A stretch of 64,000 nucleotides of DNA from positions 12,524 through 76,523 of the forward strand of contig JAFQQW010000051.1 in the NCBI GenBank assembly GCA_017410375.1. The letters are read 5' to 3'. The notes under the pieces are model-generated. The model was not told where the DNA came from. It did not search any database and saw only the letters and a list, made by a program, of their open reading frames with translations. The translations under genes were made by a program, and so were the position numbers. Below are positions 2,255 to 58,533 of this stretch, piece after piece. The DNA is from Clostridia bacterium. GTDB taxonomy: Bacteria > Bacillota > Clostridia > RGIG6154. Numbering within the stretch: the stretch's first letter is position 1; the number at the start of each line of letters is the position of its first letter.

Positions 2255-2271
2255 TACAAAAGGAGAAGCTT

Positions 2272-3091: not shown

Positions 3092-3095
3092 ATGC

Positions 3096-3872
3096 TTAGT
3101 TTAAGCCCATAGATTTTAAGTAATCGTAGCTCTTTTTAAGATTTACGAACGGGTCTTCGCCATAAGAATTATCCTGTTCTACAAACGCAAATTCTACGCC
3201 TAAGTCCAAAGAGGTCTGAATGATTTTTTCAAAATCCAGTTCACCGTGGCCAACAGGCGCGAATCTCTTTTCGCCGTCGGGCATTGTGATTAAATCTTTG
3301 TAATGCACGCAGGGAATTCTACCTTTAAAGCGGTTAAATTCCGAAATAACATCCTCGCCGCCGCGAACAATCCAATGGGTATCCAATGTAAAGCCCATCA
3401 AATCTGCCGGGAATTCATCTTTTAAGAAATCCATAGCACGTTTGCCGTTTACATCCATGTATTCTTTGTCATGGTTATGGTACATATAGTACGCACCGTT
3501 TTCCTGTAAGATTTTAAGTGCCGGCAACGCCTTTTCTTTAAATTCTTCCCAGTAACCGTTGTTTTGTTCACTAACGCTGTCCCAAAGATGCGGCATTGAG
3601 CCAAGGCCAACATATTTGCAACCAAAAATTTTGTGATCCTCTGCCACTTTTTTTGCATCCGCTACCACGGCATCAAATGCAAAATGTGTTAAATCACAAG
3701 TCAAGCCATTCTTTTTCAGTTCATCACGAAGCCATTCAGGCTCGTATGCGCAGGTACCCGAAACCTGCACAGAGGTATAACCGATATCTGCTACCTTTTT
3801 TAAGGTTTCGGAAAAATCTTCTAAAGTTTTGGTGTAATCATGTACAGTGTAAAGCTGTGCACCAATTTTCAT
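3096..3872 (-). CDS. Sugar phosphate isomerase/epimerase (xylose-isomerase-like TIM barrel)
   Basis: Start moved to MKIGAQLYTVHDY (ATG at 3870-3872, GGAG upstream). The N-terminal block MKIGAQLYT...DIGY..VQ and the C-terminal H..D.....E pattern are typical of AP_endonuc_2-family proteins. Confidence 0.8.
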   Translation of the reverse strand: MKIGAQLYTVHDYTKTLEDFSETLKKVADIGYTSVQVSGTCAYEPEWLRDELKKNGLTCDLTHFAFDAVVADAKKVAEDHKIFGCKYVGLGSMPHLWDSVSEQNNGYWEEFKEKALPALKILQENGAYYMYHNHDKEYMDVNGKRAMDFLKDEFPADLMGFTLDTHWIVRGGEDVISEFNRFKGRIPCVHYKDLITMPDGEKRFAPVGHGELDFEKIIQTSLDLGVEFAFVEQDNSYGEDPFVNLKKSYDYLKSMGLN

Positions 3873-3949
3873 AATACATCTTCTCCTTTGCATTTTTTCT
3901 TATTTTAATTGTACCACAAATCAGGAATATGTCAAGGTATTTTTCTTTC

Positions 3950-14858: not shown

Positions 14859-14900
14859 AGTCAAACAACCTCTTTCTCCACAAAAAGTTTTTTCTCTTGC

Positions 14901-14929
14901 ATTATAGTATGGAATCCGCACAATGTAAA
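14901..14929 (-). promoter_or_regulatory. Promoter of the oxidoreductase-nagA-nagB operon
   Basis: Minus strand: TTTACA (14924-14929), 17 nt, TATAAT (14901-14906). Confidence 0.55.
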
Positions 14930-23041: not shown

Positions 23042-26000
23042 TCACTTTATCGGCTTTAATGTACCGCTTCCGCCGCTTACTGTCTCACCTGATAAAAGTT
23101 CGGATGACAAAGTATACTCAAAGGTTTTTGTTGAATCATCTACCTTTACAATAAATTCATACGGATATACATCGTCAGTCATTGTCATGGTTTCTCCACC
23201 AATACTGTAAGACAGTGTTACGTTCTTTGTAGTATTGGGTTTATCTGTTACATAAACATATGCATAGTATCCATCGGGAGACATCTGCAAAACGTAACCC
23301 TTACCATTTGTGTGTGTTGAAACGGTATTTTCAATTTTTGAATTTGTAGTAGAGTATTCTACCTTTGAAAATGCAGGTGCTTTTACTGCATCTGTTTTAA
23401 TGATGATTGCCTTTAATGCTCTTGCAGGAATGGTAAGTTCGGCTTTTCCGTCTGTAAACATAACGGTTCCGATATTGCCTGTTTTATCATAAAGTGTTGC
23501 GCTTCCTGTGTAAGCACCAATCTTTTCACCTAAGGAAATGGTGGTTGTTACATCTTGTTGAGACTCATTCATAAATGCTATACCGGCAACGCCATCTTTC
23601 TTGGCTGCCATAAAGTCAATTTGAATATTTCCGGTTTCAACAATGCCTTCATCCAGCCATGCCCACATATTTTCTTCATCATAGAACTTTCCTGCTTCAT
23701 GTCCGTACTGATTGGAGTTAAAGTACGCATAACCTTGCTGACGGAGGGATGGGAACTTAATATTTCCGTTTGACCACAGAAGCGTCTGGTTGATTAAGAA
23801 ATCTTCCAGCATTGCCAAGAACGGCGTAATATGATGTGCATAAATAGCGGTATAGTCCGGTCCTTCAAACGGATATTGTTCGGTTTGCTGATATGTAGTA
23901 AAGCCTGTTAATTTATAACCCGGATAATTTGAAAATCTGCCGATGATTACATTTCGAGCAAGCATTTCATAGTATTCATCATCCGTATACAAGGAAAGTC
24001 TCATCAAATCCCCTGCCCATGTATTCATGGTAATATGTCCGGATGATCCCTGGAAAGTAGAAGATTGTTCAAGACCAAGACCGACACGAGACGGAATCCA
24101 GGAGGGTACTTCACCTGTAAGCTTAGTGATATTCACATTACTGGACAAGTCGCTGAAGTGTTCTCCCGGACGTCCTACACGGAATCTCTTGTCGCCTGCC
24201 CACCAGGAGTCGTTACCGTCTTTGTCCGCATCTCCGTTCCATTTCATGATTTCATTTATATCGTTCGCCAGTACAGTGCCGTTTTTCTTTTCTCCATCCA
24301 GACCCGGCACCCAAAGCGTGGTTGCAAGATAACGTGCAACTTCTTCTGCTGCATCTAAAAATCTTTGCTCTCCTGTTATCTCATAAATGTCGATTAATGA
24401 AGCTAAATTGGGGAAGTATGAAATGTTGATAAAGGAACTCCAGCCAATCATTGAGGTAGGTGTCGCATATACCACTTCCTCTAAATATTTATCGGCATCA
24501 GCAACAGCTTTATCCAAATACGTCTTGTCTCCTGTGTATTTATACATGTTCAGGAGATTTGAAAAAGATGCGATAGAACCATAGGAGTTGGTAACCTCGC
24601 TCGTTCCTTTTTTCAATGCATGTTCATGTAAGAAAGGAACCATACCACGTGTCATTTCATACATACCGCCATACACATTGGCGTTGAAACCTGCAATCGG
24701 TTCACCAATCGGCATGGGCAATTCTTTGAATGACCAGTACGAAAGTCCGCCTTTTCGGTCTGTAGAATTAAAATGTATATCCCCTCTTGTGAGTGTGGAC
24801 GCAATGGTCGGAATCGCTCTTTCGGTTAAGACATTTTCATCTTCTGTCAGCAAATACTGTTGCATTGCATACATCGGATTACCCTGGGATGTAACATTCA
24901 TACCTTCCATATTGTAGTGTCCCATGTTGTTTGCATCCCAACCACCGTAATAATCATCCATCATAAGTTTTCTTGTATTGAAGATTGCGGTTGTCAAAGA
25001 TGTATTCACATTTTCACGGTAATCGCTTACATCAAATAATTCCTGTGTGATATATTTATAGGTATCAAACCAATCTCCCGGTGTACTTACAATACGATAC
25101 TTAAAGGTATAACTGTCACCTGCATTCATTTTTGAGTCTTCTGTACCTAAAACAGGGGCAAAAGCTGACGCACGGTAATTGCCGTAAACGCCTTTCATAT
25201 TTATACCAAATATACCATTGTCGTTATAAACCCAACGAAGCGGAATGAATGAGGGCTCTACTACAACACCTTTGGTAACCTGAACGCCGTTTTTGGTTGT
25301 TGTATATGTGCCCATAGGCGTAAAGAGATATTGTTCAATAAGAAGACATTTATCGCCATGAATTCTCTTACCTTGTACACGATAGGGTGCGAGAGCGAAC
25401 GAAATGTCATCATAAGCCATTTCACTGCCTTCCCAACCGCCCATGGTATAGAAGCCTTCTTTGTTTGCCACCATATTCATTGTAACAAGAGGTGTTTTGG
25501 TATCATCCAGCGACCAGATAACTTCTAACGACACCCCATCTTTATCTTCAAAGAGGAGCTTCAACTGATTATCTGCAATTTTTTCCATTCCGATGGGCAC
25601 AAACCAAGTTTTTAAACCACTTGCGTACAAATCATTACCTGCATACAGACGACTGATTCCGTCTTCTTTGAATTGCGTGCTGAACGTATACTTATCCTCA
25701 GCAGGCGCCATTTCCTGGGCATTATCTGCCGAAATAACCACATAGCCCAATTCTTCTTTACGTTCTTTTGTTAAAACGTATTGACCATTCTGTTTTGCGT
25801 AAATTTCGTTTTGAATTACAGGTCCTTTTGCAGTCGGAACATTATAAAATACAACCTTTACATCTGCATTTTCGAGTACAATTTCTTGTGTCGGTTCTGC
25901 TTGTTCTTTTGCATATTGCGGAAAACCTGCAGACTTGCCCGATGTAGGATTGAACGGAGATGCAATTGCATACATACTATTCATATTTTCCGGCGGAACG

Positions 26001-28339
26001 TAATTGGGATCCTCTGTCAATAAAATCGCATCACATCTTGCGCCAAAAGCGGAGGTATCTATCAGCGAAAGCTCGTTTTCACCTTCTTTTACAGATACTT
26101 CGCCTGCACGCATCCATATAAATCCTGTCTTTCCATGGGTACCAAATTCTGCATCCACACGTTTGCCGTTAACTTCAATCTGAAACTTTCTGGTTCCCTG
26201 CTGGTTGTACTGGAAGTCTTTAGATCTTGCCCAAAGGGTATATGTTCCGCTCTCAGGCGCATCAAAAGTAACCTTTGCGGGTTTTGTTTTAGATGGATCC
26301 GCGTCCTTGGGCGTAGGATTGCCGACATTCGGATGCATACCTCTTAAAGCTTTTCCGTCAAAAGCACCCGACACACCGGTTTCAAACGACCATGTACCGA
26401 GTTCTTTAAAAGAAGAAGGTACAAACCAATAGGTTCTCGGTGTAACACGCGCCATAATAACTACGGTTTGTGTTTCGTCTATCCATTCTACATTTGCGCC
26501 CAATGCTTCCGATACAAAACGGAGCGGAACCAAAGTTCTGTCGTTTACAACAATGGCAGGCTGATCCATAAACTTGCCTTCGTTGTCAATTCTTGCCATA
26601 CTATCCCCGATGGGAAGCATTATTGTTTTACCGTTTCTTATACCGATTGCGGTCTGGTTGTCATTATCCCATTGTACATCGCAACCAAGTGCCTCAAAAA
26701 TAGCACGGAACGGAACCATAGTTCTGTCATTCATTAAAATCGGAGGCACATCAAATTGCATATATTCGCCATTTAATTTTACCGCAATTTCATCTGCAGG
26801 TCTGCCAGTATTATCTTGTGCCTGTTGCTTTACAGTGCCCGGTACATATTGTTTTTTGGAAAGCTCTTTGAAATTTTCAACCGAATCATCCACCTTAAAA
26901 TACAAGTCGTCCGTAATGATGATCATATCCACACGTGCATTGTATCCTTTATAGTCCATCACTTTCAGCAATTTTTCGCCGGAAGAAAACGGAAGTACGG
27001 CACTTTCCTGCCATCCCCAGGCATCCTTTCCGAGTGCACCAAAAACGATATCCGGATTTTCGCCGGCTTTCACCTTGAACAATCGGGTGCCCGGCATAGA
27101 CGCAAAATCTCTTGTATGTACCATGACTTTGTAAAAACCGTCTTTAGGAATGCCAAACTTTGCTGTAGCCGGATTATTCGACGAATCCTTGTTATCATTT
27201 CTTCCTACCATAATATTGGGAAGCACGCTGTTTTTGGTATCCTGATTTGTAATTTCCCAACTTCCCAAGCTGTTCTTAAAGGTTTCGGGTGTATATACAT
27301 AGTAGTTATACCCCTCTTTAAACTCTACAGGTTTTGCCTCTACGGATGGTGTATCGGAACTTTCTGTCTTGGTTTCGAAATCGGTAGCTAAGTAAGGAAG
27401 AACCCATGCCGGATAGGTTTCGGTCATTTTTTGGATTTCTTCTGCCGTTTCAGGCAAAGGAAGATTGTCATTTGTTGTTAAAATAATGCCCTCTAATCTT
27501 CCGTAAAACGCAGCAGTATCAAACACTTCTATTGCTGTTCTGCCCTCCTTGAGGGTAACAGAACCAACCTCTTCCCAGGCAAATCTGCTCTCGCCATGGT
27601 CGCCGATAACCGTATCAAAACGTGTGCCGCCGACCGCAATATGGAAAAATCTTGTTCCGGATTCTACGATTGAGCCGTTTGAGCTTATAAAAGCTGCATA
27701 ATCTCTTGCCCTTGCATAAACCTTATAGGTGCCATCCTTCGGCACATATATACTTACCTGTGCCGACTTTGCGCTTTGCATGCTTGATGCGTTGGATTTT
27801 AAGATTTCTAAGGTTGCGCCCACTTCAGGTGCAGCAATATTCCAAGAGCCGGGATGTTCTTTAAAATCCTGTGCTTTAACAAATATCGTAGGTGCACCTG
27901 TATAACCTGCCGGCGGATCAGGCAATTTTACCGGCTCCGGCTTGGAAATAGTAAGATTCAATGTGTAGTTATTGTACGTATCTTCACCCTTAGGTCTTGA
28001 AGGCGCCGCCGCAGTTGCTTTGACAGCCAAAACCGTACGACCGCCATCTCTCATTTCGTTGGAGATGATGGTACTATCTAAGTTATACTTTACGTTTGCA
28101 TCACTTAAATTTACAAGTTCAGCCGTAACTTTATAACCTGCAAGACTGTTTTCAGTAACCTCCATCGGAAATTCGCTCAAAGGCACAACAAAGCGAATGC
28201 TGTTGTCCCCTACACCGGAAGAAACAGCCGTTACCTGAAATGAATCCTCTTTTGTTCCTGCAAAAACGTTCATGCCAAGCAGGTTGCACAGCATACAAAA
28301 GAGCATAAAAATTGCAATCCATTTCTTCATTTTCTTCAT
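23042..28339 (-). CDS. Giant secreted multidomain protein, paralog 1 of 3 (unassigned glycan-active-like core; three N-terminal repeat modules + Cu-amine-oxidase-N-like domain)
   Basis: 1765-aa ORF with signal peptide MKKWIAIFMLFCMLCNLLGMNVFA (the likely start is the second ATG at 28330). A repeated ~140-aa module is encoded at nt 27464-27886, 26900-27307 and 26000-26431. A copper-amine-oxidase-N1-like 'stalk' domain is at nt 26450-26791 (LNGEYMQFDVPPILMNDRTMVPFRAIFEALG... NDRTLVPLRFVSEALGANV). The C-terminal ~1000 aa are collinear with paralogs 2 and 3. Confidence 0.85.
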   Translation of the reverse strand: MKKMKKWIAIFMLFCMLCNLLGMNVFAGTKEDSFQVTAVSSGVGDNSIRFVVPLSEFPMEVTENSLAGYKVTAELVNLSDANVKYNLDSTIISNEMRDGGRTVLAVKATAAAPSRPKGEDTYNNYTLNLTISKPEPVKLPDPPAGYTGAPTIFVKAQDFKEHPGSWNIAAPEVGATLEILKSNASSMQSAKSAQVSIYVPKDGTYKVYARARDYAAFISSNGSIVESGTRFFHIAVGGTRFDTVIGDHGESRFAWEEVGSVTLKEGRTAIEVFDTAAFYGRLEGIILTTNDNLPLPETAEEIQKMTETYPAWVLPYLATDFETKTESSDTPSVEAKPVEFKEGYNYYVYTPETFKNSLGSWEITNQDTKNSVLPNIMVGRNDNKDSSNNPATAKFGIPKDGFYKVMVHTRDFASMPGTRLFKVKAGENPDIVFGALGKDAWGWQESAVLPFSSGEKLLKVMDYKGYNARVDMIIITDDLYFKVDDSVENFKELSKKQYVPGTVKQQAQDNTGRPADEIAVKLNGEYMQFDVPPILMNDRTMVPFRAIFEALGCDVQWDNDNQTAIGIRNGKTIMLPIGDSMARIDNEGKFMDQPAIVVNDRTLVPLRFVSEALGANVEWIDETQTVVIMARVTPRTYWFVPSSFKELGTWSFETGVSGAFDGKALRGMHPNVGNPTPKDADPSKTKPAKVTFDAPESGTYTLWARSKDFQYNQQGTRKFQIEVNGKRVDAEFGTHGKTGFIWMRAGEVSVKEGENELSLIDTSAFGARCDAILLTEDPNYVPPENMNSMYAIASPFNPTSGKSAGFPQYAKEQAEPTQEIVLENADVKVVFYNVPTAKGPVIQNEIYAKQNGQYVLTKERKEELGYVVISADNAQEMAPAEDKYTFSTQFKEDGISRLYAGNDLYASGLKTWFVPIGMEKIADNQLKLLFEDKDGVSLEVIWSLDDTKTPLVTMNMVANKEGFYTMGGWEGSEMAYDDISFALAPYRVQGKRIHGDKCLLIEQYLFTPMGTYTTTKNGVQVTKGVVVEPSFIPLRWVYNDNGIFGINMKGVYGNYRASAFAPVLGTEDSKMNAGDSYTFKYRIVSTPGDWFDTYKYITQELFDVSDYRENVNTSLTTAIFNTRKLMMDDYYGGWDANNMGHYNMEGMNVTSQGNPMYAMQQYLLTEDENVLTERAIPTIASTLTRGDIHFNSTDRKGGLSYWSFKELPMPIGEPIAGFNANVYGGMYEMTRGMVPFLHEHALKKGTSEVTNSYGSIASFSNLLNMYKYTGDKTYLDKAVADADKYLEEVVYATPTSMIGWSSFINISYFPNLASLIDIYEITGEQRFLDAAEEVARYLATTLWVPGLDGEKKNGTVLANDINEIMKWNGDADKDGNDSWWAGDKRFRVGRPGEHFSDLSSNVNITKLTGEVPSWIPSRVGLGLEQSSTFQGSSGHITMNTWAGDLMRLSLYTDDEYYEMLARNVIIGRFSNYPGYKLTGFTTYQQTEQYPFEGPDYTAIYAHHITPFLAMLEDFLINQTLLWSNGNIKFPSLRQQGYAYFNSNQYGHEAGKFYDEENMWAWLDEGIVETGNIQIDFMAAKKDGVAGIAFMNESQQDVTTTISLGEKIGAYTGSATLYDKTGNIGTVMFTDGKAELTIPARALKAIIIKTDAVKAPAFSKVEYSTTNSKIENTVSTHTNGKGYVLQMSPDGYYAYVYVTDKPNTTKNVTLSYSIGGETMTMTDDVYPYEFIVKVDDSTKTFEYTLSSELLSGETVSGGSGTLKPIK

Positions 28340-28418
28340 CCTTTCTTTTAGTTGTAATTCTAATTTCTACCGACATTATGCTTGCAAACAAGCTTGGTCG
28401 ATTAAAGTTTACATTTTT

Positions 28419-28427
28419 ATTATAACA
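28419..28427 (-). promoter_or_regulatory. Extended -10 element (TGtTATAAT) upstream of giant gene 1
   Basis: Minus strand TGTTATAAT, about 90 nt upstream of the start. No convincing -35. Confidence 0.3.
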
Positions 28428-28435
28428 TTTTTCTA

Positions 28436-28483
28436 TTTACAAAGCACGAAAAAAGTTGTATAATACTAGATAAAAGTTATTAT
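28436..28483 (+). repeat. Left arm of a 48-bp inverted repeat; contains the AraC promoter
   Basis: TTTACA (28436-28441), 17 nt, TATAAT (28459-28464), then 19 nt of leader. 43 of 48 positions match the reverse complement of 29299-29346 (base-by-base comparison). Confidence 0.8.
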
Positions 28484-28501
28484 TTCAAAGGAGGAATCAC
28501 A

Positions 28502-29299
28502 ATGGCATTGCATCATTCTCACAATTCTGTCGGAAATTTCGACTATAAGGCAAGCATCTATAAACCCTGGTCGATACCTGCACATTTCCATAGAAATTAT
28601 GAATTGATTTACATTTACGAAGGCACCTTGGACATATTTGTTCACGGAGAGCGCTTCACCCTTTCAGAAGGTGATTTTTTCCTGATTCGCCCCAATTCCA
28701 TACACTCCTTCACGGTAACCGAAGAACAAAAGGTATGGGTAGCCGTATTTTCGGATGATTATGTCTATAAATTTGCAAAAGAGTATGAAAACTCCCAGTT
28801 TTCAAAATTCAGATGCGACCCTGATATTGAAGTATTCTTAAAGAAATATTTATTAATAGGCGGAATACCTCCGCTGTATATAATCATTTCATGTTTAAAC
28901 TTAGTTTGTGATGCCTGCATCAACAATGCAACCGAAATCACAACGCAAGAAATAAATATGAATGTATTTAATCAAATTTATGAATATATATCGAAAAATT
29001 ACAATAAAGCACTGTCTTTAAAAGAATTAGCCCGTGCGCTTGGCTATGAATACCATTATGCCTCCCTTTTGTTTCACAAATATTTTAATATGAATTTCAA
29101 AGCCTTTATCAATCTGTACCGGGTGCAGCTTGCCTGTGATTTTTTATTAACCACGAGCAAGGATATCCTCTCCATTTCCATCGAATGCGGCTTTGACAAC
29201 CTACGTAATTTTAATTATGTATTCAAAAATTATACCGGTCAAACACCTTCACAATACAGAAAGCATATTAGCAAACCAAATATACAAATTTCAAATTGA
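28502..29299 (+). CDS. AraC-family regulator (cupin + HTH), divergent from giant gene 1
   Basis: Cupin-like N-terminus (HFHRNYELIYIYEG) and C-terminal AraC HTH (LRNFNYVFKNYTGQTPSQYR). AAAGGAGGA SD. Confidence 0.85.
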   Translation: MALHHSHNSVGNFDYKASIYKPWSIPAHFHRNYELIYIYEGTLDIFVHGERFTLSEGDFFLIRPNSIHSFTVTEEQKVWVAVFSDDYVYKFAKEYENSQFSKFRCDPDIEVFLKKYLLIGGIPPLYIIISCLNLVCDACINNATEITTQEINMNVFNQIYEYISKNYNKALSLKELARALGYEYHYASLLFHKYFNMNFKAFINLYRVQLACDFLLTTSKDILSISIECGFDNLRNFNYVFKNYTGQTPSQYRKHISKPNIQISN

Positions 29300-29346
29300 T
29301 AATAACTTCTATCTAATATTATACAACTTTTATCGTGCATTGGAAA
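29299..29346 (-). repeat. Right arm of the 48-bp inverted repeat; a full inward-facing promoter copy
   Basis: It begins at the last base of the AraC stop codon. The minus strand reads TTTCCA (29341-29346), 17 nt, TATAAT (29318-29323), pointing antisense into the AraC gene. Confidence 0.75.
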
Positions 29347-29368
29347 GATAAATACGTTAGAATAAAAT
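29340..29368 (+). promoter_or_regulatory. Candidate promoter of the MBL-fold gene (its -35 overlaps the antisense promoter -35)
   Basis: TTGGAA (29340-29345), 17 nt, TAAAAT (29363-29368). Confidence 0.4.
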
Positions 29369-29414
29369 CAATAACTGGTATCGGAAATAATGAAAACGAA
29401 AAGAGGACAAACTT

Positions 29415-30239
29415 ATGAAAATTGTTCAGTTGACCAACAAAACCGCTTATCAGACCATGGGTTATGTTTTACAGTCAAAAACTGGCGAAGTACTTGTTAT
29501 TGATGGCGGTATAACAGGAAATGATGCGGAACTTTACAGGGTTATAAAAAAACTCGGCGGTAATATTTGCTTATGGCTTATTACGCACCCGCACAATGAC
29601 CACTATGATGCAGTTATTGAGCTGCTTGCCAAATATAAAGATGTCACCTATGAAAAAATGGGCGCCGCTGTGTTACCTGATTCGTGGGCAGACGATATAA
29701 ACGAAGAAGAACGAAAAGAACTGCATAACTGGAACGCTTTTGCCAAAACACTGGGTGACAGACTTTTTGAAATCAAAGAAGGTATGCAGTTTTCCCTTGG
29801 CAGTATGAAAGTGGAGGTTCTTGCCGGAAACAATCCCGATTTAAAGACAAATCCTATTAATGATCAGTCTTGCGTCTTTAAAGTTTCCGAAGATAATTTC
29901 AGCATTCTGTTTTTAGGAGATTTAGGTGCTGAAGGCGGAAACCGTCTGCTTTCCAAGCCCTGCGATTTAAAATGTACGGCAGTTCAGATGGCACACCATG
30001 GACAAGGCGGCGTTACGGAAGAAGTGTATAAAGCCATTGAGCCTGAATTTGCTTTTTGGCCGACACCCGACTGGTTATGGGAAAACAGAAAATATTTGGG
30101 AGAAGGAGAAATCGGAGAAGGTCCTTTTGAAACGCCCAAAACTGCAGAATGGATGAAATCCCTTGGCACAAAAAACATTTTTTCTTTTGACCACACGATA
30201 CTATTTGATACAACCACAATGACCACAACCGAATTTTAG
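29415..30239 (+). CDS. MBL-fold metallo-hydrolase
   Basis: H-x-H-x-D-H motif (ITHPHNDHYDAV), later MAHHGQGG. 274 aa. Confidence 0.8.
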   Translation: MKIVQLTNKTAYQTMGYVLQSKTGEVLVIDGGITGNDAELYRVIKKLGGNICLWLITHPHNDHYDAVIELLAKYKDVTYEKMGAAVLPDSWADDINEEERKELHNWNAFAKTLGDRLFEIKEGMQFSLGSMKVEVLAGNNPDLKTNPINDQSCVFKVSEDNFSILFLGDLGAEGGNRLLSKPCDLKCTAVQMAHHGQGGVTEEVYKAIEPEFAFWPTPDWLWENRKYLGEGEIGEGPFETPKTAEWMKSLGTKNIFSFDHTILFDTTTMTTTEF

Positions 30240-30249
30240 TCAAAAATTA

Positions 30250-30290
30250 CACAAAAACGAAACACCCCCACCATTTCAGGTGGGGGTGTT
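30250..30290 (-). terminator. Rho-independent terminator of giant gene 2
   Basis: AACACCCCCACCatttcaGGTGGGGGTGTT (30261-30290), followed on the minus strand by TTCGTTTTTGT. It starts 8 nt after the stop at 30298. Confidence 0.65.
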
Positions 30291-30297
30291 TATTAAG

Positions 30298-33200
30298 CTA
30301 ATTAATTGTTTTTGCAGGCAACAAAGGCGTCAGATTTGTACCATTATACAAGTCATTTTCCCAAACAAACAGCTTCTGATTTTCATTCAAAGTGTACACT
30401 TTAGAATTATTGACGCTTACAATTGCTTTATCCACCGTAAAAGATGTCATTCTGTTATCATCATAAGTAACAATTGCAACAAAGCAGTACTTTGCACCGT
30501 CACATTGCACAATGTACTGATTTCCATCCTGCACAATTTTAAGTTCTCCGTCTGTTTTGGCATCTACAATATAAAGATTTGACCAATCATAGGCTGTAGT
30601 CGCGCCATGGGTTACATTGATTACACCTTGTTTTTCGCCTATGTAATTTCCGTCACTATCATATTTGTGACAGTTATCTATATGCGCAAGATAAAATTGG
30701 GATACCGTAAAATCAGTTCTGGACTTTGATGAATTGTACATACTTTGCTCAATTTTCACCTTGTCAAAGATAATGTATCCGCTTTCCACAACATCCGTAG
30801 TAGCCTCCACATCTTTTACTTCCAAATAACCGCTCAAATAGCAATCAGTCAATGCATCGTCTGCTTTGAAATCAAATCCCCCAAATGTTTCTTCAGAATA
30901 ATTTGAATCGCCAAGACAGAATTTCAATCTTCCTTTTGTGACAGGCGCACTCACACCTCCTGCTTGTGTAAGGTCTTTTAGTGACACAGGTTCAAAATGA
31001 TTTTTACTAACCGTTTCTTCCAAAACAACAGCCATCGGTTCGATTGTATGCTCTTCTGCCAGAGTTTTAACCTCGCCGTTCCCAAACTCTGTTTCTACAT
31101 TGAATACAATTTTCTTTGCTCTGTCATAAACCGGCAAATAAAATTCATAAGGAAAATGCGTGTCGGTTTCGGTATGCACCTCGGTATCTCCTTCGTAATG
31201 CCATGTAAGTGTGGATTTTACAATACCATTTTTGCCATCACCTGCCGGCACCCCTTTTTCATCAATGCGTGCTTCGGTAGACCTTCCGCCAACAAAGATA
31301 TAGCCCATATAGTTTCTTGGGTCAACAGAAAGTGCATAAGCTTTTACATCATAACCCGTTTCTGTTTTATAACCTTTCCAGGTGTTTTCTTCGTAACTGC
31401 TCTTATATGTATTTCCTTTATACATAAGTCCCATAGCAGAATTTCCCATATAGAGGTTGTTAGCATTCGGTTCATTTTCAAAAACAACCTTGCTATACAT
31501 AGGTGCTGCAATTCCGCTGCCTGAAACCGCAATTGTCCGAATACCTTTTGCAGGAATTGTAATTGTGACTGCACCATCCGTAACATCAACCAAAGATGCA
31601 TTTCCTGCTTTGTCGTAAACGGTTGCTTTTGAACCGTCTTTAACCTTCATATCGCTGTTAAAGGCAATTGTCACTGTTTGATCGACATCGCTTGCATTGG
31701 TAAGCGCAAATGCCGCTCTCCCATCTTTTCTGCCACCAATCCAGTCAATTTGTTGTGCATCGTATAAAGATGCACCTGTGATGGTCAGCGTCCCTTCTTT
31801 AAGCCACGGCCACATATCCGTTTCATCATACATTACGCCTGCCTCTGCACCGTAATGACGGGTATTAAACCACACATAGCCTTGGCTTCTTGTGGTCGGA
31901 AAGTCAACTTTTCCCTCGGATTTTACCCAGGCATTTGAGAACAAATAATCCTGAACTGCCGCCATAAACACCGGAATATGATGAAAATATAAGCTTGTGG
32001 AATCAAAACCATCTATCGGATAATTCGGAAGACCGGGGGTTAAATAATAGCTGTCGATATAATAACCGGGATAGTTTGCAAAGCGACCGACGATAGAGTT
32101 TCGCGCCATATCCATCATCAACTGGTCATCCGAAAGATAACCCAATCTCAAAATATCTCCTGCCCAGGTTGACATAAAAATATTTGCATTTCGGCCATAG
32201 CAAGTTGTAAACTGCTCTAACCCAAGACCAACACGAGAGGTTACCCAGAAAGGATATTCCGTATCATCAACCTGAAGAGCACTCTCCAGGGCACCGGCGG
32301 TTGCGCGCTTTACATAATTGCTGTCATTCGTGTTATCGACAACATCAACCATGGTTGCACCTCGACGGTAGCCTTGTCCGTCTTTCCACCACCAGGTGTC
32401 TTTATTAAAAATCCGACTTTCGTTTTTGATTTGCTCAACATCTGCCACATACATATCTGTTTTGCTGCTTGGCATATCCGTTGTTCTTAAAGATGGCAAA
32501 AATCTTCTTGCCGCTTCTACAGCACCGTCTAAATACACCGCATTGCCCGTTGCTTCATACATATCTAGCTGCGATTGAAAATGAGGGCTGTAACTGACGT
32601 TGATGAACAATTTATCATTCAAGTAATTTGTTGCAGCAGAAAAGCTTCTGTTTTCAATATAGGAATCCGCATATTCAATAGCTGTAGACAAGGACACATT
32701 TCCTGTCGCTCTGTCGTACCACAAGGCATCAGAAGGGTTTCCAAGTCCCAGACCGCCCGATTCAACGCTTGTTAACATAAGATTGCTTTTTGCAATATTC
32801 CGAAGGATTGGCATTTGACCGCGCGTCATCACATAAGCGCCTTCAAAGTTGGAGTTTCCAAGGTCAAATTGCGTTTTTGTCAATTCTTTATTAATGGGAC
32901 CTTCTGAACGGGATTCGTATGAAAATTCACTGTTAAAATGTGTGCTGTTGCGGGTAAGCTGTGTACCGATAGATGGTAATGTTCTTTCCATTAACAGTTC
33001 CTGATCCTCTGTTAACATATAGCATTGAAGATACGCCAATCCGTTAGAGTTGGTTACACGATAGGTATCTTCTATATTGTAGTGTCCCTGCATTTCTTCA
33101 TCCCAACCGCTCTTCTCATCATCTTTCATCAAATTCAAAAGATTAAATACGGTATCTGTCATGGATGCATAGTAGTTATCACGATAGTCGTAAACATTTC

Positions 33201-35583
33201 TTAAATCTTTTACCACATGCGCATAGCAGTCATACCACCCTCTGTTGTCACCGCTTGTTGAAATGGAGGCAAGCGGTCTGTATGCAAAGGTATATGTATC
33301 ACCTACAGAAAATGTTGAGTCCAATGTACCCATCAAAGGTGCAAAAACAGAAGGTTGCACACCACCGTTTTCACCCATCGTACCTAACCCAAAGTTGGAT
33401 TGTTCCTCTGTGTAATCGATCGTAAATTCTTTGCCAAGCACATCCTTTTTGGTGTAGCCCGGAACGGTATGGGTCCAGCGATAAGGTGCAATGGAATCTA
33501 AATCTACTGCAACACCTAAGGTGATTTCCTGCCCATTTTCATTTGCTTTATAGGTCATTTGGGTATGGTCGGTGGTAGAAAATTCTTCAGGAATCAATCT
33601 GGGGTCTTCCGGAAATCTTCTTTCCTGCCACCGGAATGGGGTTAAGATATACCCAACATTCGCTCTTGAAATTTCATTGGGATCATTAAAGAATCCGAAA
33701 GAATACTCACCGTCTAAGTTTGTGGTGGCTGTCACCTCAACCTTTGGCTCTAAATCCCCTTCCTCCAATGTCCAGATTGCTGTTATATCTGCAAGCTTTC
33801 CTTTGGCTGTCATTTTAATTTTGTTTAGCGCAAGTTGTTCTAACGTGCTTGGTATTAACCATTCCGGTTCACCGGAACGATATATATCATACGAATAAAA
33901 ATTATATTTCTCACCATTTACGGTGTAATCAACATAAAACCTCGGATAACGTCTCTCATCAACTATTTTTTGTACCGAGTCCGCACGAACCGCCAAAAAA
34001 CCTAAGCCGGTTTCATACTCTAAAACAACTTGATTCTGAACTTTCAATTCACGCTGTACCAAATTGGTTCCATCCGCTAATGTGCCTAATTTAAAGTTCA
34101 ATTCGGTTTTATCATTTTTCAATGACAAGGTTTGGCTTACACTTGTCATGGTTTGCTTTGCACTTTCAGGATAAGCAATTTTATCTCTGTATGCTAAATA
34201 TGACGGGAAAGCATCTGCACAATCCGCATAAGATTTAACATTTTCAAGTGTGCAGAAAGGATCCTGCGTAATCAAAATAGCGTCAAGTCTTGCAGAATTT
34301 GCTTTTGCATTCAGTTTGATTTCTATTTGCCCATTCTCTACCATAAACGCCCCTGAAGGGTAAGTTGCCTGCTCCCACGCCCATGCCGGTGTATTGCTGC
34401 TTGCAGTTCCCGTATTTGTTCCCGGATATTGGTGTGTGCCGAAAAATCTTGTATTTTTTGACGAATCCCCATCTATTGCGTTTTCTCTTTTGCGATATTC
34501 GGTACCATTTACAGAAATACTGAAAATTCTGTTTGCTGTTGAATAATCCGAATAATCACAGGTTCTGGCAAAAAGGTAGTAAGCGCCGTTTTCAACATCG
34601 TCAGTCTTAAAAACAGCGGATTCTTTCGTTCCGACGCTTTTTAAAATATCGGACGAATACAGGTTATATTTACCACTCTCATCATGAATAAAGTCATCTT
34701 GCCAGCTACCGAGCATCTGACTGCTTGTTGCAGGAATAAGATAGGAAGCATATCCATTTGGATTTGCAACCAATTTAAAACCAGAAAGTCTGGTGGTGCC
34801 GCCATTTGTTGAAGATTTAACCTCAAGGGTTTCTCCGCCCTTGCCACTAAATTCAACCGTTGCAACCTTTACCCAACCTGCCGTTTGTTTTGCACTTCCC
34901 ACTTCACAAGTGCGTTTATTTTCCTCAATATCCGTAAATGTAACCGAAACACTGCAATCCGACAATCCTTCGCCTACAAAGGATTTGTTCTCAGGCAAAT
35001 AATAGTAAACATCAGTTTTACCTGAAGCAGTTGCGGGCACCGTCCATTTTGCGTAGCCCGATCCATGATATGTCTTTGTTCCGTCAAAATTTTTCAATGA
35101 TGAAGACCACCAGTCTCTGAACTGATGGATATCTGTTTGATCCAAGTCGGCAGTCGATAAAAAGATTGGATTTGCACTTTCTGTTTTTAATGAGCCAATA
35201 ACAGCTGTTTTACCATTATCCGTAATGGTTACTGTATCTCCGTTTGTAAAATTGTAGCATCCGAGCTCATACCAATTATCAAAAGCTGCAATTAAGTTCT
35301 TTGTTGTCACTTTCCCTTCTGAAGAGATGTCGATTTTAATATTTGAATTTTTTTGGACATATAATCTTAAATTTGATTCACCTGTATCCGGCAATGTCCA
35401 TACAGCTGTTGCGCCCTCCGTCATTGCCGTTGCAAAATCAGAAGTTATCGTAAAACCATTGGACGAAAACGCACTGCTTGTTACCTTATATTCGATATTT
35501 CCTGTTGTTTCCGCTGTAGCCGGAACCGTTACCAACATGAATATAATGGCTACAATCAGCAATAAACTAATCTTTTTTTTCAT
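30298..35583 (-). CDS. Giant secreted multidomain protein, paralog 2 of 3
   Basis: Start moved to MKKKISLLLIVAIIFMLVTVPATA (ATG 35581-35583, GGGGGAAGG SD). It is collinear with paralog 3 over nearly its whole length, with identical runs such as TTDHTQMTYK, YDYRDNYY, STWAGD, GRFANYPGYY, SLYFHHIPVF, GYDVKAYALS, KKIVFNVETE and CYLSGYLEVKD. Confidence 0.85.
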   Translation of the reverse strand: MKKKISLLLIVAIIFMLVTVPATAETTGNIEYKVTSSAFSSNGFTITSDFATAMTEGATAVWTLPDTGESNLRLYVQKNSNIKIDISSEGKVTTKNLIAAFDNWYELGCYNFTNGDTVTITDNGKTAVIGSLKTESANPIFLSTADLDQTDIHQFRDWWSSSLKNFDGTKTYHGSGYAKWTVPATASGKTDVYYYLPENKSFVGEGLSDCSVSVTFTDIEENKRTCEVGSAKQTAGWVKVATVEFSGKGGETLEVKSSTNGGTTRLSGFKLVANPNGYASYLIPATSSQMLGSWQDDFIHDESGKYNLYSSDILKSVGTKESAVFKTDDVENGAYYLFARTCDYSDYSTANRIFSISVNGTEYRKRENAIDGDSSKNTRFFGTHQYPGTNTGTASSNTPAWAWEQATYPSGAFMVENGQIEIKLNAKANSARLDAILITQDPFCTLENVKSYADCADAFPSYLAYRDKIAYPESAKQTMTSVSQTLSLKNDKTELNFKLGTLADGTNLVQRELKVQNQVVLEYETGLGFLAVRADSVQKIVDERRYPRFYVDYTVNGEKYNFYSYDIYRSGEPEWLIPSTLEQLALNKIKMTAKGKLADITAIWTLEEGDLEPKVEVTATTNLDGEYSFGFFNDPNEISRANVGYILTPFRWQERRFPEDPRLIPEEFSTTDHTQMTYKANENGQEITLGVAVDLDSIAPYRWTHTVPGYTKKDVLGKEFTIDYTEEQSNFGLGTMGENGGVQPSVFAPLMGTLDSTFSVGDTYTFAYRPLASISTSGDNRGWYDCYAHVVKDLRNVYDYRDNYYASMTDTVFNLLNLMKDDEKSGWDEEMQGHYNIEDTYRVTNSNGLAYLQCYMLTEDQELLMERTLPSIGTQLTRNSTHFNSEFSYESRSEGPINKELTKTQFDLGNSNFEGAYVMTRGQMPILRNIAKSNLMLTSVESGGLGLGNPSDALWYDRATGNVSLSTAIEYADSYIENRSFSAATNYLNDKLFINVSYSPHFQSQLDMYEATGNAVYLDGAVEAARRFLPSLRTTDMPSSKTDMYVADVEQIKNESRIFNKDTWWWKDGQGYRRGATMVDVVDNTNDSNYVKRATAGALESALQVDDTEYPFWVTSRVGLGLEQFTTCYGRNANIFMSTWAGDILRLGYLSDDQLMMDMARNSIVGRFANYPGYYIDSYYLTPGLPNYPIDGFDSTSLYFHHIPVFMAAVQDYLFSNAWVKSEGKVDFPTTRSQGYVWFNTRHYGAEAGVMYDETDMWPWLKEGTLTITGASLYDAQQIDWIGGRKDGRAAFALTNASDVDQTVTIAFNSDMKVKDGSKATVYDKAGNASLVDVTDGAVTITIPAKGIRTIAVSGSGIAAPMYSKVVFENEPNANNLYMGNSAMGLMYKGNTYKSSYEENTWKGYKTETGYDVKAYALSVDPRNYMGYIFVGGRSTEARIDEKGVPAGDGKNGIVKSTLTWHYEGDTEVHTETDTHFPYEFYLPVYDRAKKIVFNVETEFGNGEVKTLAEEHTIEPMAVVLEETVSKNHFEPVSLKDLTQAGGVSAPVTKGRLKFCLGDSNYSEETFGGFDFKADDALTDCYLSGYLEVKDVEATTDVVESGYIIFDKVKIEQSMYNSSKSRTDFTVSQFYLAHIDNCHKYDSDGNYIGEKQGVINVTHGATTAYDWSNLYIVDAKTDGELKIVQDGNQYIVQCDGAKYCFVAIVTYDDNRMTSFTVDKAIVSVNNSKVYTLNENQKLFVWENDLYNGTNLTPLLPAKTIN

Positions 35584-35693
35584 ACCTTCCCCCATCACTA
35601 TAGAATTTGTTCTTTTTTGCAAATTTTGTAGTTAATTCGTATGCGTTTTTAAAAGCGCATGCCTACTATACTATGCATACTATACCCACATTA

Positions 35694-36157: not shown

Positions 36158-36901
36158 TTATTGCGTTTGCGTATATTTTTTGGGAGAAATTCCCATTTCC
36201 TTTTTAAAAGCTCTGCTGAAAGCATATATACTGCAGAAATTTAAGTATTCTGCAACCTCGCTTATGTTCATGTCTTCAGATTTTAGAAGTGCCGATGCAT
36301 ACCTCATCAGTAATGCATTTTTATATTTCACAGGCGACATTTTTATTTTTTCGCGAAACAGACTTCTGAAATGGGATTCGCTCAACCCGCAAAGTACGGC
36401 AAGCTCTTTAACAGACACAACTTTGTCGAAATTGGCTTCCAGATATTTTACAGCGGGACCGATTTTACCTAAGTCGTCGTTTTTATTCAGCTTCATCTCG
36501 AACATGGCGGCGATGCCGAACAGATTTGACAAAACGACATACTGCTCATTTTTGTAAAAGGCACGATGCAAATCATAAAACAGCCGTTTGCCATCTCCTC
36601 CTGCCTGAATCACTTCGGGATACACAGAAATAACAACTTCCTCATCTGTTTCCGGCTCAAAATCAGTTATGATAACCTCAGCAGTTTCAGATGTAATCAC
36701 AAAGCTGTAGTCTGACTTTTTGGGCAGATACACCGCATCATTTTCTTTGGCACAAAATGTACCTACCTTAGTTTCAAATATAAATTCACCCTTAACAATA
36801 AAGAAAAACGCCGCTCGTATTCGATTGTTTTGAGCAAGTTGTCTTTTATTCGGATTTCTGTGTACCACCGTTATATCTTTTACGGAATATCCTTTATTCA
36901 T
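36158..36901 (-). CDS. AraC-family regulator
   Basis: Start moved to MNKGYSVKDI (AGAGGTG SD). C-terminal AraC HTH (IYAFSRAFKKEMGISPKKY). Divergent from 37045. Confidence 0.8.
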   Translation of the reverse strand: MNKGYSVKDITVVHRNPNKRQLAQNNRIRAAFFFIVKGEFIFETKVGTFCAKENDAVYLPKKSDYSFVITSETAEVIITDFEPETDEEVVISVYPEVIQAGGDGKRLFYDLHRAFYKNEQYVVLSNLFGIAAMFEMKLNKNDDLGKIGPAVKYLEANFDKVVSVKELAVLCGLSESHFRSLFREKIKMSPVKYKNALLMRYASALLKSEDMNISEVAEYLNFCSIYAFSRAFKKEMGISPKKYTQTQ

Positions 36902-36992
36902 AGGTAATTCACCTCTTTTTTCATTATATATAACTTTTTTGGACAAGTCAATAAAAATCGTCGAAATGGTTAAAAAATAGTTATATTCGTTA

Positions 36993-37021
36993 TTGTAAAC
37001 AGCCAAATAATCTTATATACT
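36993..37021 (+). promoter_or_regulatory. Candidate promoter of DUF4838-like paralog A
   Basis: TTGTAA (36993-36998), 17 nt, TATACT (37016-37021). AAGGAGG SD before ATG 37045. Confidence 0.45.
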
Positions 37022-37044: not shown

Positions 37045-38958
37045 ATGAGACTGATTTTAGCACAAATCGGCACAAACCAAACGGTTGCGCTTGCCGTAAA
37101 GGAAATTGTGCGTCTGATTAAAGCCATGGACAAAACAATCGCTTTGGATGTAAGACGCTACGATGAGAAAAAAGCAGACGTTAAAAATGCCTTATGGGTA
37201 GGTATTGACGGATCGGTAGAAAAAAGCAAAGACGACCATATCGTTATAAAGGTAAAAGATGCAGAGGGTATTATTACAGGTAGTAATGAAAGAAGTGTAC
37301 TTATCGCTGCATATCGTTTTATGACAGAGCTTGGTTGTCGCTTTTTGCGTCCCGGTCCTGCCGGAGAAAAAATTCCGGAACAGCCCCTTGATTATGCGGA
37401 TTTAACAGTAGATATTGACGAGTTGCCCAGCTACAGACACAGAGGTATTTGTATTGAAGGTTCTGTTGGTTATGAGCATGTGATAAACACCATTGAATGG
37501 TTGCCTAAAGTGGGCATGAACAGTTTCTATATTCAGTTTTTCACCCCCACAACCTTCTTTAAGCGCTATTACAGCAAATACTACGAAAACGAGCAGGATA
37601 AGGATTTTGGAAACAATCTCACCGATGCAGATATTGATGCAATGATGGAGCTTGTAAAAGATGAAATTCAGAAAAGAAGTCTGGTGCTACATGCAGTAGG
37701 ACACGGCTGGTCAAGTGCACCGTACGGCTTTGTTGCAACCGGCTGGGAAAAATATGAGGGTGAAATTGATGATAAAATGAGAGCAGCACTTGCTCTTTAC
37801 AAAGGCGAACGCAAGTTCTTCAACGATACGCCCATCAGCACCCAGCTTTGCTATTCCAATCCCGGTGTTATGGAGCATGTTACTGATTTCGCTGTAGAAT
37901 ACTGCAGAAAAAATCCACACATTCATTATCTTAGCTTTGGTATGGGTGACGGTGGCAGAAACCATTGTGAATGTGAAGAATGCATCAAAAAAACGCCTTC
38001 TGACCATTATGTGGATATGCTTAATTTGCTGGATATCAAGCTGGAAAAAGCGGGTCTTGATACAAAAATTGTATTTACCGTCTATGCAGACACCCTGTTT
38101 GCACCAAAACAGGAAAAACTGCGTGACAGCGGTCGTTTTTGTCTTAAATTTGCACCCATCGCCCGTTCTTTCTCGCAGTCTTATGACGAAATTGACCTTG
38201 ATAATCTGCCCGAAACCGCACCCTTTGTGTTAAATCAGGATATGGTGCGCAACACGGTAGAGCTGAATGTGGCATATCTTGAAAAATGGCAGAGAAATTA
38301 TAAAGGAGACGCATTTGTTTTTGATTATCACCTGATGTGGGACCACGATACCGACCCGGGTTATTATAATGTTTCAAAAATCATAAACCGAGATATGGCA
38401 GCCCTTGACAGAATCAAGCTCAACGGTATGTTAAGCTGTCAGTTACTCCGCTCGGCATTCCCGACAGGACTACCGACCTACACCATGGCAAAAACACTCT
38501 GGAACAAAAAATGCACCTTTGAAGAAATTAAAAACGATTATTTCACCACCGCCTTTGGCGAAGACGCAAAGCTGGTAGAAAACTATCTTTCTGAAATTTC
38601 AGACCTTGCCTGCCCACCCTTTGTGAGAGGCAACTTAAAGCTTTCTCCTGAAGAAGTGATTGAACGGTATACCAAGCTTAAAGAAGTCGTTATTGCATTC
38701 CGTGAAAAACATGCACAAAAAATGGCAGATGTATCTCCTGACTGGGAACATCTTTACATTCACACATTTATGATTCCGATATTTGCGGATGTGTATATGG
38801 CAAGATACAGCGGCGACGAAGATGCCGTGCAGGTTCATTCAGATGCGTTCCGTGCCTGCGTCCAAAAATATCAGCCTATGATTGACGATGTTTGCGACGA
38901 TTATCATATGAAATTTACCTTACTTAAAAAATATCTGGCACGGCATAAACCCGAATAA
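37045..38958 (+). CDS. DUF4838-like putative glycoside hydrolase, paralog A
   Basis: 637 aa. HRGICIEGSVGYEHV, LPKVGMNSFYIQF and a CECEECIKK motif. About 60% identical by eye to the product of 42201-44114, which has the same length. The family name is recalled from memory. Confidence 0.6.
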   Translation: MRLILAQIGTNQTVALAVKEIVRLIKAMDKTIALDVRRYDEKKADVKNALWVGIDGSVEKSKDDHIVIKVKDAEGIITGSNERSVLIAAYRFMTELGCRFLRPGPAGEKIPEQPLDYADLTVDIDELPSYRHRGICIEGSVGYEHVINTIEWLPKVGMNSFYIQFFTPTTFFKRYYSKYYENEQDKDFGNNLTDADIDAMMELVKDEIQKRSLVLHAVGHGWSSAPYGFVATGWEKYEGEIDDKMRAALALYKGERKFFNDTPISTQLCYSNPGVMEHVTDFAVEYCRKNPHIHYLSFGMGDGGRNHCECEECIKKTPSDHYVDMLNLLDIKLEKAGLDTKIVFTVYADTLFAPKQEKLRDSGRFCLKFAPIARSFSQSYDEIDLDNLPETAPFVLNQDMVRNTVELNVAYLEKWQRNYKGDAFVFDYHLMWDHDTDPGYYNVSKIINRDMAALDRIKLNGMLSCQLLRSAFPTGLPTYTMAKTLWNKKCTFEEIKNDYFTTAFGEDAKLVENYLSEISDLACPPFVRGNLKLSPEEVIERYTKLKEVVIAFREKHAQKMADVSPDWEHLYIHTFMIPIFADVYMARYSGDEDAVQVHSDAFRACVQKYQPMIDDVCDDYHMKFTLLKKYLARHKPE

Positions 38959-51110: not shown

Positions 51111-51168
51111 ATTCATACCTTCTTTTCTTTTTTTTCAGTGTAACATCAAAAAAAATCCATGTCAAGAA

Positions 51169-54474: not shown

Positions 54475-54486
54475 ATTTCCACCTCC

Positions 54487-55920: not shown

Positions 55921-55933
55921 CGGAATTCCCTCC

Positions 55934-58507: not shown

Positions 58508-58533
58508 ACACACGCATCCTTTCTATCTGCTTT

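Follow-up and report, generated by a model that had tools for sequence, protein, structure and literature searches.

Large secreted paralogues from a Clostridia enzyme island as members of a candidate new family of glycan-active proteins with a predicted six-hairpin barrel

Within a 64,000-nucleotide stretch of a Clostridia bacterium genome (assembly GCA_017410375.1, contig JAFQQW010000051.1, positions 12,524 to 76,523; hereafter the window), three open reading frames (ORFs), termed W1, W2 and W3 (coordinates in Table 1), encode members of a protein family that is absent from Pfam, NCBIfam and the PDB and lies inside the known six-hairpin superfamily. The three proteins resemble one another far beyond chance, with 32% identity between W1 and W2 over about 1195 aligned columns (E 3e-153) and 48% identity between W2 and W3 over 1656 columns (E 0), and a collinear core of about 1,000 amino acids (aa) is common to all three. 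We give roughly even credence to the proposal that they are secreted, multi-modular, carbohydrate-active depolymerases with a six-hairpin catalytic barrel, favouring a Glu/Glu hydrolase that would act on an acidic glycan. Homology, domain layout, fold class, conservation, distribution and the exclusion of named families are directly supported, and we infer catalysis, hydrolase chemistry, endo action and substrate. Within a comparison that leaves CAZy and dbCAN to one side, the family is credible as a candidate new glycoside hydrolase (GH) or polysaccharide lyase (PL) family, not as a categorically new kind of system.

A family hidden Markov model (HMM) compared with the six-frame translation of the window recovered exactly three copies, namely the minus-strand ORFs that an initial annotation, made from the sequence alone, had listed at the same positions. 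The collinear conserved blocks described there were found in the same order in all three proteins, and the TWAGD-type block lies precisely where it had been placed (nucleotides (nt) 24008-24022, 32155-32172 and 60370-60387). Some of the proposed patterns proved slightly too strict as written: W1 reads SDYREN in place of YDYR(D/E)N and W3 reads TGLGLER in place of VGLGLE, the spacing of the GWD...HYNME block in W1 departs from the pattern, four residues rather than three separate DS from GD in the FAP block, and KVIVSVNNSK is exact in W3 only, W2 carrying AIVSVNNSK. As had also been reported, W2 and W3 are a close pair whose alignment continues through a stretch of about 255-270 C-terminal aa with no counterpart in W1. 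These two form a separate small subfamily of about seven cluster representatives, and the closest relative of W1 is P0025, from a Clostridia metagenome-assembled genome (MAG; locus tags IKJ55_), which is 97% identical across the core.

Judged by eye, the N-termini of all three proteins look like Sec signal peptides, in agreement with the initial annotation. The W2 ORF was called from a TTG codon, and an ATG at nt 35583 (aa 14) opens the sequence MKKKISLLL..., a typical signal peptide. Because the homologue P0004 begins at the equivalent residue, we place the start of W2 at Met14; the TTG start (window 35583-35622) is probably 13 codons too early, with the true start likely being the ATG at nt 35583.

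Predicted fold, invariant residues and family placement

W1 is organised, from its N-terminus, as a signal peptide, two modules resembling carbohydrate-binding modules (CBMs), a Cu_amine_oxidN1 stalk, a third CBM-like module, a beta-sandwich, an (alpha/alpha)6 barrel and two further beta-sandwiches; its third CBM-like repeat aligns to one copy each in W2 (aa ~341-455) and W3 (aa ~167-328). An AlphaFold2 model of W1 aa 790-1765, built with a 41-sequence alignment, was of high confidence (predicted local distance difference test (pLDDT) 93.2, predicted template-modelling score (pTM) 0.93) and comprises a beta-sandwich, a barrel of at least 12 helices and two beta-sandwiches, the same layout that the initial annotation had guessed as beta-sandwich, alpha-alpha toroid and beta-sandwich. 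Foldseek comparison of the whole model with the PDB gave loose multi-domain matches only (template-modelling score (TM) at most 0.35), including GH101, GH31, GH65, GH95, GH121, GH94, GH63 and galactose mutarotase chains, the highest TM-score among them belonging to the PL27 enzyme BACCELL_00875. Because these superpositions were poor, the barrel was predicted again and searched alone (pLDDT 90, 12+ helices). The best barrel match reached E 6e-4, with TM at most 0.5 and a Foldseek probability of about 0.9-1.0 for the best matches, and the neighbours were AGE-superfamily epimerases, LanC-type lanthipeptide synthetase domains, PL27, GH88, GH76, GH9 and GH127/146. All top matches to the barrel were six-hairpin proteins; the predicted fold class is clear, and it has no close relative among solved structures.

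Conservation was read from 200 diverse full-length members aligned to the family HMM. Only two acidic residues are invariant (200/200), E1145 and E1424 in W1 numbering, which is used below. The initial annotation had expected conserved acidic residues and named two candidates; the Glu of VGLGLE is one of the invariant pair, and the Asp of TWAGD was not upheld, since P0003 has TWAPE and the position falls below 85% conservation. At least 96% conservation is seen at W1090, R1108, N1121, W1134, R1185, R1468, Y1475, D1495, Y1500 and H1503, and E1728 in the last beta-sandwich is 98.5% conserved, while the DD pair at W1 1128-1129 is not conserved family-wide. Because the invariant and near-invariant residues are all kept in W1, W2 and W3, no dead paralogue is apparent among them. 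DSSP assignment of the barrel model places both E1145 and E1424 in long inter-helix loops, and six-hairpin active sites normally form in such loops of the barrel.

An invariant polar and charged cluster in barrel loops, maintained across six phyla at overall identities reaching below 25%, is an active-site signature, and it makes it very improbable that these are non-catalytic surface proteins in which a degenerate six-hairpin scaffold serves glycan binding or adhesion. Such a role would suit the many CBM-like repeats, the stalk domain and the S-layer homology (SLH) or dockerin anchors, and no activity of any member is on record; it sits poorly with genes that occur in substrate-uptake cassettes as the sole candidate enzyme.

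The core could not be placed in a named GH or PL family, a point on which the initial annotation was borne out by Pfam, NCBIfam, PDB sequence and profile searches and Foldseek, the CAZy/dbCAN HMMs lying outside the comparison. The sole domain recognised by Pfam was the Cu_amine_oxidN1 stalk of W1, and sub-threshold core matches to GH127 (PF07944) and GH88 extend over no more than about 75-85 residues; Pfam found no match anywhere in W3, and NCBIfam found nothing relevant for the core of any of the three. Single sequences searched with phmmer against all PDB chains gave no match at E <= 1. A family profile matched only GH76 alpha-1,6-mannanases in the PDB (E 3e-3 when built from 11 sequences, 1e-4 from 60 diverse sequences), and these matches span one or two helix hairpins carrying a generic Y-x-T-G-D-x-x-Y-L-x-x-A motif. 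No paper describing the family was found in the literature searched.

Ordinary, divergent membership of GH127/GH146 is suggested by weak PF07944 matches in W1 and several homologues and by the label of one MAG protein, and we consider it scarcely credible. The W1 match scores 17.9 bits (E 0.0017) against a gathering cut-off of 24.9 and covers profile positions 131-204 of 376, while PF07944 finds nothing in W2 or W3. The matches in several homologues, of which a few slightly exceed the threshold, fall on the same ~75 positions (~131-210 of 376 overall, ~135-210 for those above threshold), a single hairpin. Catalysis in GH127/146 needs a Cys nucleophile in a Cys3-Glu zinc site, as in HypBA1 and BT0349. 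No Cys column reaches 85% conservation among the 200 aligned members, Cys is absent from the invariant and near-invariant columns of the family alignments A2, A3 and A7, and Foldseek TM to GH127/146 structures is 0.11-0.20.

GH76 membership was likewise rejected. The best match (E 1.2e-4) covers only chain residues ~26-137, and the Pfam GH76 match in one homologue (E 0.0057) is below threshold. In the GH76 enzyme Aman6 the catalytic residues are Asp124 and Asp125; with the position of this dyad set by comparing the wild-type FNDD (4boj) with the D125N variant FNDN (5agd), HMMER aligns it to the family consensus aFynis (FINISY in W1), which holds no acidic residue.

To our knowledge, the (alpha/alpha)6 families without structures in 2021 were GH139 and GH154; both have since gained PDB entries. 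GH139/GH95 membership was not supported, there being no PDB sequence match at E <= 10 and a TM of 0.13-0.15 between 2EAE and the whole model, and the GH139 structures 9HYQ and 9HMB, now described (PMC12282258), turned up in neither the sequence nor the fold searches. For GH154, which has the structures 8OI4 and BcGDH and is a six-hairpin 'GH' family now proposed to contain uronate (glucuronate) dehydratases and not hydrolases (PMC12269599), there was again no PDB sequence match at E <= 10, and 8OI4 was not among the top 50 Foldseek matches. GH111 keratanase II, raised by the GH20/NagA/NagB context and by SLH-bearing Paenibacillus homologues, was set aside on fold, as its catalytic domain has been modelled as a (beta/alpha)8 TIM barrel (PMC8602953) and the core here is (alpha/alpha)6. 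To PL27, represented by BT0263 and BACCELL_00875, the likeness in a comparison of overall structure is one of fold and layout only (TM 0.35-0.46), and HMMER found no family-profile match to PL27 in the PDB.

Proposed function and its alternatives

In the model we favour, the proteins would be exported by Sec. Variable N-terminal modules for glycan binding or anchoring (Golvesin_C/malectin/CBM35-like, with the stalk in W1) precede the conserved four-domain core, whose barrel would be the catalytic domain. The invariant pair E1145 and E1424, candidates by conservation, may be the general acid and base in a glycoside hydrolase mechanism, the near-invariant ring of Arg, Asn, Tyr, His, Asp and Trp may form sugar-binding subsites, and the three or four conserved Arg would point to an anionic substrate, probably a uronate-containing glycan. 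Depolymerisation would take place outside the cell, with oligosaccharides imported by ABC transporters in Bacillota or by SusC/D in Bacteroidota and finished by exo-glycosidases, and the three diverged copies, from two subfamilies, may be specificity variants within a lineage-specific expansion. The accessory modules found across the family (CBM35, Golvesin_C, SLH and dockerin) are typical of extracellular polysaccharidases and argue for this model.

Contexts in other genomes support extracellular attack on a polymer. In Chitinophagaceae and Sphingobacteriales a conserved locus runs GntR, SusC, SusD, family member, GH92 and FAD oxidoreductase (with GDSL), and in Paenibacillus a member typically sits with genes for an ABC sugar transporter and for a His kinase with its AraC response regulator, and is often the sole candidate glycan enzyme in the cassette. 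These contexts hint, weakly, at a uronate- and/or mannose-containing substrate. The uronate hints are UxuA in the window, DHDPS, SDR and enolase-type dehydratase genes adjoining the P. oceani member, a heparinase II/III-like (Hepar_II_III_C-like) protein and BNR_4 near the member of Paenibacillus sp. YN15, and the N-terminal module itself, which matches a CBM35 (PDB 2w3j) weakly. Extracellular endo action on a HexNAc- or uronate-containing glycan had been proposed in the initial annotation; the other contexts lean weakly to uronate or mannose and not to HexNAc, and endo action is conjectural.

The main rival to a hydrolase is a polysaccharide lyase, in which Y1475 or Y1500 together with His1503 would perform beta-elimination, Arg and Asn would neutralise the carboxylate, and the Glu pair would be binding or structural; we treat this as a tentative possibility, held at perhaps one chance in a few. 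PL27 gives the best whole-model TM match and shares the N-terminal beta-sandwich and (alpha/alpha)6 layout, the near-invariant Y1475, Y1500, H1502/H1503, N1121 and three or four Arg would supply such chemistry, and the uronate contexts (UxuA, P. oceani and YN15), together with a PL8 that lies about 9 kb away from the member in P. allorhizosphaerae, are of the expected kind. The TM to PL27 is nevertheless only 0.35-0.46 and comes with no sequence similarity, genes for GH88/GH105 and KduI/KduD are not enriched beside members and are absent from the window, and strict invariance is limited to two Glu, which is more typical of hydrolases. SLH-bearing Paenibacillus members such as P0053 (2479 aa) may resemble the gellan lyase of Bacillus sp. 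GL1 in size and layout; the precursor of that unclassified lyase has a mass of ~263 kDa, of which the N-terminal ~130 kDa forms the enzyme.

Several points weigh against a hydrolase acting on an acidic glycan. The contexts are heterogeneous and some member copies are orphans; there is no consistent exo-glycosidase partner across phyla, GH92 being limited to one Bacteroidota group; and the island in the window is mixed (GH20, GH2, GH36-like, GH113, NagA/B) and therefore indicates no single substrate. The literature searched yields no biochemical data for any family member. The conserved Tyr/His/Arg/Asn set suits a lyase just as well, and GH154 offers the precedent of a six-hairpin 'GH' family that turned out to be a dehydratase (PMC12269599).

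That precedent, a reported glucuronate dehydratase, also bears on an unlikely alternative, namely sugar chemistry without cleavage, in which a glycan end would be dehydrated, epimerised or isomerised, or an oxidative route shared with a PF12831 flavoprotein. The top barrel matches in Foldseek are AGE-superfamily epimerases and isomerases, PF12831 oxidoreductases are recurrent neighbours of members in Bacteroidota and Paenibacillus and are found at a distance of a few genes in one metagenome locus, and a GFO/IDH/MocA oxidoreductase gene stands beside the member in that same locus (L055) and occurs in the window. The Foldseek matches to epimerases are marginal (6e-4, TM ~0.25), the window holds no PF12831 gene, and very large, secreted, CBM-rich proteins anchored by SLH or dockerin fit polymer attack far better. 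In its boldest form, to which we assign a similarly small likelihood, the family would bring chemistry new to six-hairpin proteins acting on polymers, either as a secreted glycan-end dehydratase or as the first half of a two-enzyme system for oxidative cleavage, alongside the likewise uncharacterised ~750-aa PF12831 flavoproteins, and would target a polysaccharide for which there is no known degrading enzyme.

The PF12831 FAD-dependent oxidoreductases are about 540-960 aa long, and only their N-terminal GxGxxG FAD motif matches PDB or NCBIfam. Their gene stretches lie at 15901-21319 in L001, 15031-22684 in L002, 14567-16798 in L056 and 19384-20308 in L055, the last being about 5 kb from the member.

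Family distribution and the window neighbourhood

Word-indexed searches returned 4, then 20, then 85 homologues, and an exhaustive profile search covering 1.84 billion cluster representatives (50% identity clusters) returned 996 proteins at E <= 1e-3, of which 457 reached E <= 1e-30; the apparent ultra-rarity suggested by the first four matches was an artefact of the index. Many members are about 1,140 aa long and have no Pfam match at all.

A locus scan in which a single genome stood for each species gave 50 loci. Many Paenibacillus species are among the carriers, as are Bacteroidota (Chitinophagaceae, Flavihumibacter, Parapedobacter, Arachidicoccus, Porphyromonadaceae and Bacteroidales), with one or two loci per genome in both groups; further carriers are Ruficoccus and Opitutales (Verrucomicrobiota) and Oligosphaera and Victivallales (Lentisphaerota), and cluster look-ups add Phycisphaeraceae (Planctomycetota). 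Two gut Clostridia MAGs hold 8-9 loci each, E27__bin387 (L006, L014, L017, L028, L031, L035, L037, L040 and L041) and a Hadza MAG (L012, L015, L016, L018, L029, L032, L052 and L053). These counts are strong evidence of a lineage-specific family expansion in uncultured gut Clostridia, and the initial annotation's suggestion of an expanding family, made from the three window copies, holds in this wider sample.

The names under which members appear are 'hypothetical protein' or that of an accessory domain (copper amine oxidase N-terminal, stalk, S-layer homology). The one exception is a MAG protein, P0034, named 'glycoside hydrolase family 127 protein'; the GH127 similarity found in it is a ~75-residue, single-hairpin Pfam match only, and the label is likely a propagating mis-annotation. 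A 2038-aa member, P0086, carries a dockerin (PF00404) together with a Cu_amine_oxidN1 stalk, which suggests that some gut Clostridia members may have been recruited into cellulosome-like complexes.

The window is an island of carbohydrate-active enzyme genes with five AraC regulators. It encodes GH20, a GH36-like protein, a BNR propeller, a CE15-like esterase, NagA, NagB and a GFO/IDH/MocA oxidoreductase, as well as GHL6, GH2, a second GH2-like protein, two DUF4838 proteins, GH113, UxuA and a GH28-like beta-helix protein. W3 is the first gene of a same-strand run that continues with the SLH, LamG-like and GH28-like genes (52516-58513 after W3). The initial annotation had given each copy its own regulator, and this is true of W1 and W2, each with an adjacent AraC gene; for W3 no regulator is visible, its upstream side leaving the window. 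The AraC-MBL gene pair also adjoins the W1 orthologue in a related metagenome contig, where a ~1,760-aa protein without Pfam match, probably the counterpart of W2, is encoded nearby.

Further observations concern the surroundings of the family genes. The related contig has a gene (L059 3860-7486) for a 1208-aa RCC1/WD40-repeat, Big_2 protein, between the gene in the W2 position and MBL/AraC/W1, that is absent from the window. Two window ORFs on the minus strand, 9546-11666 (706 aa) and 49458-51116 (552 aa), have no Pfam or NCBIfam match even at permissive thresholds, and were considered as extra family members or PF12831 flavoproteins and found to be neither. The two DUF4838 paralogues, each of 637 aa (37045-38958, plus strand; 42201-44114, minus strand), lie near AraC and GH2-like or GH97/GH31-like genes and represent a second duplicated, poorly characterised type of putative glycosidase in the island. 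At 2212-3893 and 13608-14921, Amidohydro_2, xylose-isomerase-like TIM-barrel and GFO/IDH/MocA oxidoreductase genes stand among glycosidases, a set reminiscent, by analogy, of oxidative or 3-keto-glycoside sugar routes.

Table 1 Positions of the three family members, their domains and candidate residues, and adjoining genes in the window
Feature	Position (nt)	Strand	Remark
W1	23042-28339	-	1765-aa family member, putatively secreted
W1 signal peptide	28259-28339	-	about aa 1-27, MKKMKKWIAIFMLFCMLCNLLGMNVFA followed by G; sequence read by eye
W1 CBM-like repeat 1	27449-27892	-	aa ~150-297; Golvesin_C/malectin-like
W1 CBM-like repeat 2	26906-27301	-	aa ~347-478
W1 Cu_amine_oxidN1 stalk domain	26456-26776	-	aa 522-628; Pfam E 1.2e-35
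W1 CBM-like repeat 3	25985-26434	-	aa ~636-785
W1 core N-terminal beta-sandwich	25079-25888	-	aa ~818-1087; predicted by AlphaFold2
W1 (alpha/alpha)6 six-hairpin barrel	23774-25072	-	aa ~1090-1522; putative catalytic domain; predicted by AlphaFold2
W1 Glu1145 (HYNMEG)	24905-24907	-	invariant 200/200; candidate catalytic residue
W1 Glu1424 (VGLGLEQ)	24068-24070	-	invariant 200/200; candidate catalytic residue
W1 two C-terminal beta-sandwiches	23057-23746	-	aa ~1532-1761; carry near-invariant Glu1728 (YPYEF)
W2	30298-35622	-	1774-aa ORF; small subfamily with W3
W2 shared core	31483-34185	-	aa 480-1380
W2 Glu851	33070-33072	-	invariant Glu, equivalent to W1 E1145
W2 Glu1136	32215-32217	-	invariant Glu, equivalent to W1 E1424
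W2 C-terminal extension	30301-31065	-	aa ~1520-1774; in W3 and P0002, not W1; no known domain
W3	58534-63519	-	1661-aa family member, putatively secreted
W3 shared core	59719-62484	-	aa ~346-1267
W3 Glu744	61288-61290	-	invariant Glu, equivalent to W1 E1145
W3 Glu1031	60427-60429	-	invariant Glu, equivalent to W1 E1424
AraC-family regulator	28502-29299	+	divergent from W1
AraC-family regulator	36158-37006	-	directly upstream of W2, same strand
SLH-domain protein	55934-58513	-	downstream of W3
LamG-like protein	54487-55920	-	downstream of W3
GH28-like beta-helix protein	52516-54474	-	downstream of W3

If biochemically confirmed, these proteins would enter CAZy as a new family whose roughly one thousand clusters at 50% identity come from soil Paenibacillus, uncultured gut Clostridia, Bacteroidota and the Planctomycetota-Verrucomicrobiota-Chlamydiota (PVC) phyla. 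Some of the largest secreted 'hypothetical proteins' in these genomes would then acquire a function, and stray 'GH127' labels would be corrected. The 8-9 copies per gut Clostridia MAG imply a major nutrient niche that is invisible to current annotation of carbohydrate-active enzymes, and the identity of the substrate would explain the diet of these uncultured bacteria. With two invariant Glu and a high-confidence model the hypothesis is directly testable, and we expect its interest to be moderate to high for specialists in carbohydrate-active enzymes and the gut microbiome.

Comparison with characterised six-hairpin enzymes

The known systems nearest to the family each share part of its architecture. 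Multidomain enzymes of the GH95/GH139/GH65/GH94/GH121 type have their domains in broadly the same sequence (beta-sandwich, (alpha/alpha)6 toroid, beta-sandwich), but global TM is 0.12-0.19, there is no sequence similarity, and the GH139/GH95 structures in the PDB are unmatched by the family profile. The L-rhamnose-alpha-1,4-D-glucuronate lyase of PL27 (BACCELL_00875, 5no8) has the N-terminal beta-sandwich and (alpha/alpha)6 barrel but lacks the two C-terminal beta-sandwiches, and superposes with an rmsd (root-mean-square deviation) of 8.7-14 A at 10-14% identity. GH88/GH105 unsaturated uronyl hydrolases and AGE epimerases are Foldseek neighbours of the barrel only (TM up to 0.5), with the GH105 enzyme YteR appearing weakly in the family profile search; unlike the family, these intracellular or periplasmic proteins have one domain and a length of about 350-400 aa, and their matches to it are marginal.

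The beta-L-arabinofuranosidases of GH127/GH146 (PF07944, DUF1680) share the six-hairpin barrel followed by beta-sandwich domains and a weak one-hairpin Pfam match (~75 of 376 profile positions), whereas the family has no conserved Cys/Zn site. GH76, represented by Bacillus circulans Aman6 and BT2949, provides the best PDB sequence match, at E ~1e-4 over about 110 residues. Its enzymes have a single domain of about 350 aa, compared with about 1,000 aa in four domains for the core here; no more than two of the six hairpins can be aligned, and the FNDD dyad is not kept in the family. GH76 has the same (alpha/alpha)6 barrel fold as the family core and shares with the family a link to GH92: GH92 accompanies GH76 in yeast-mannan loci, and in some Bacteroidota a family member adjoins a GH92 alpha-mannosidase.

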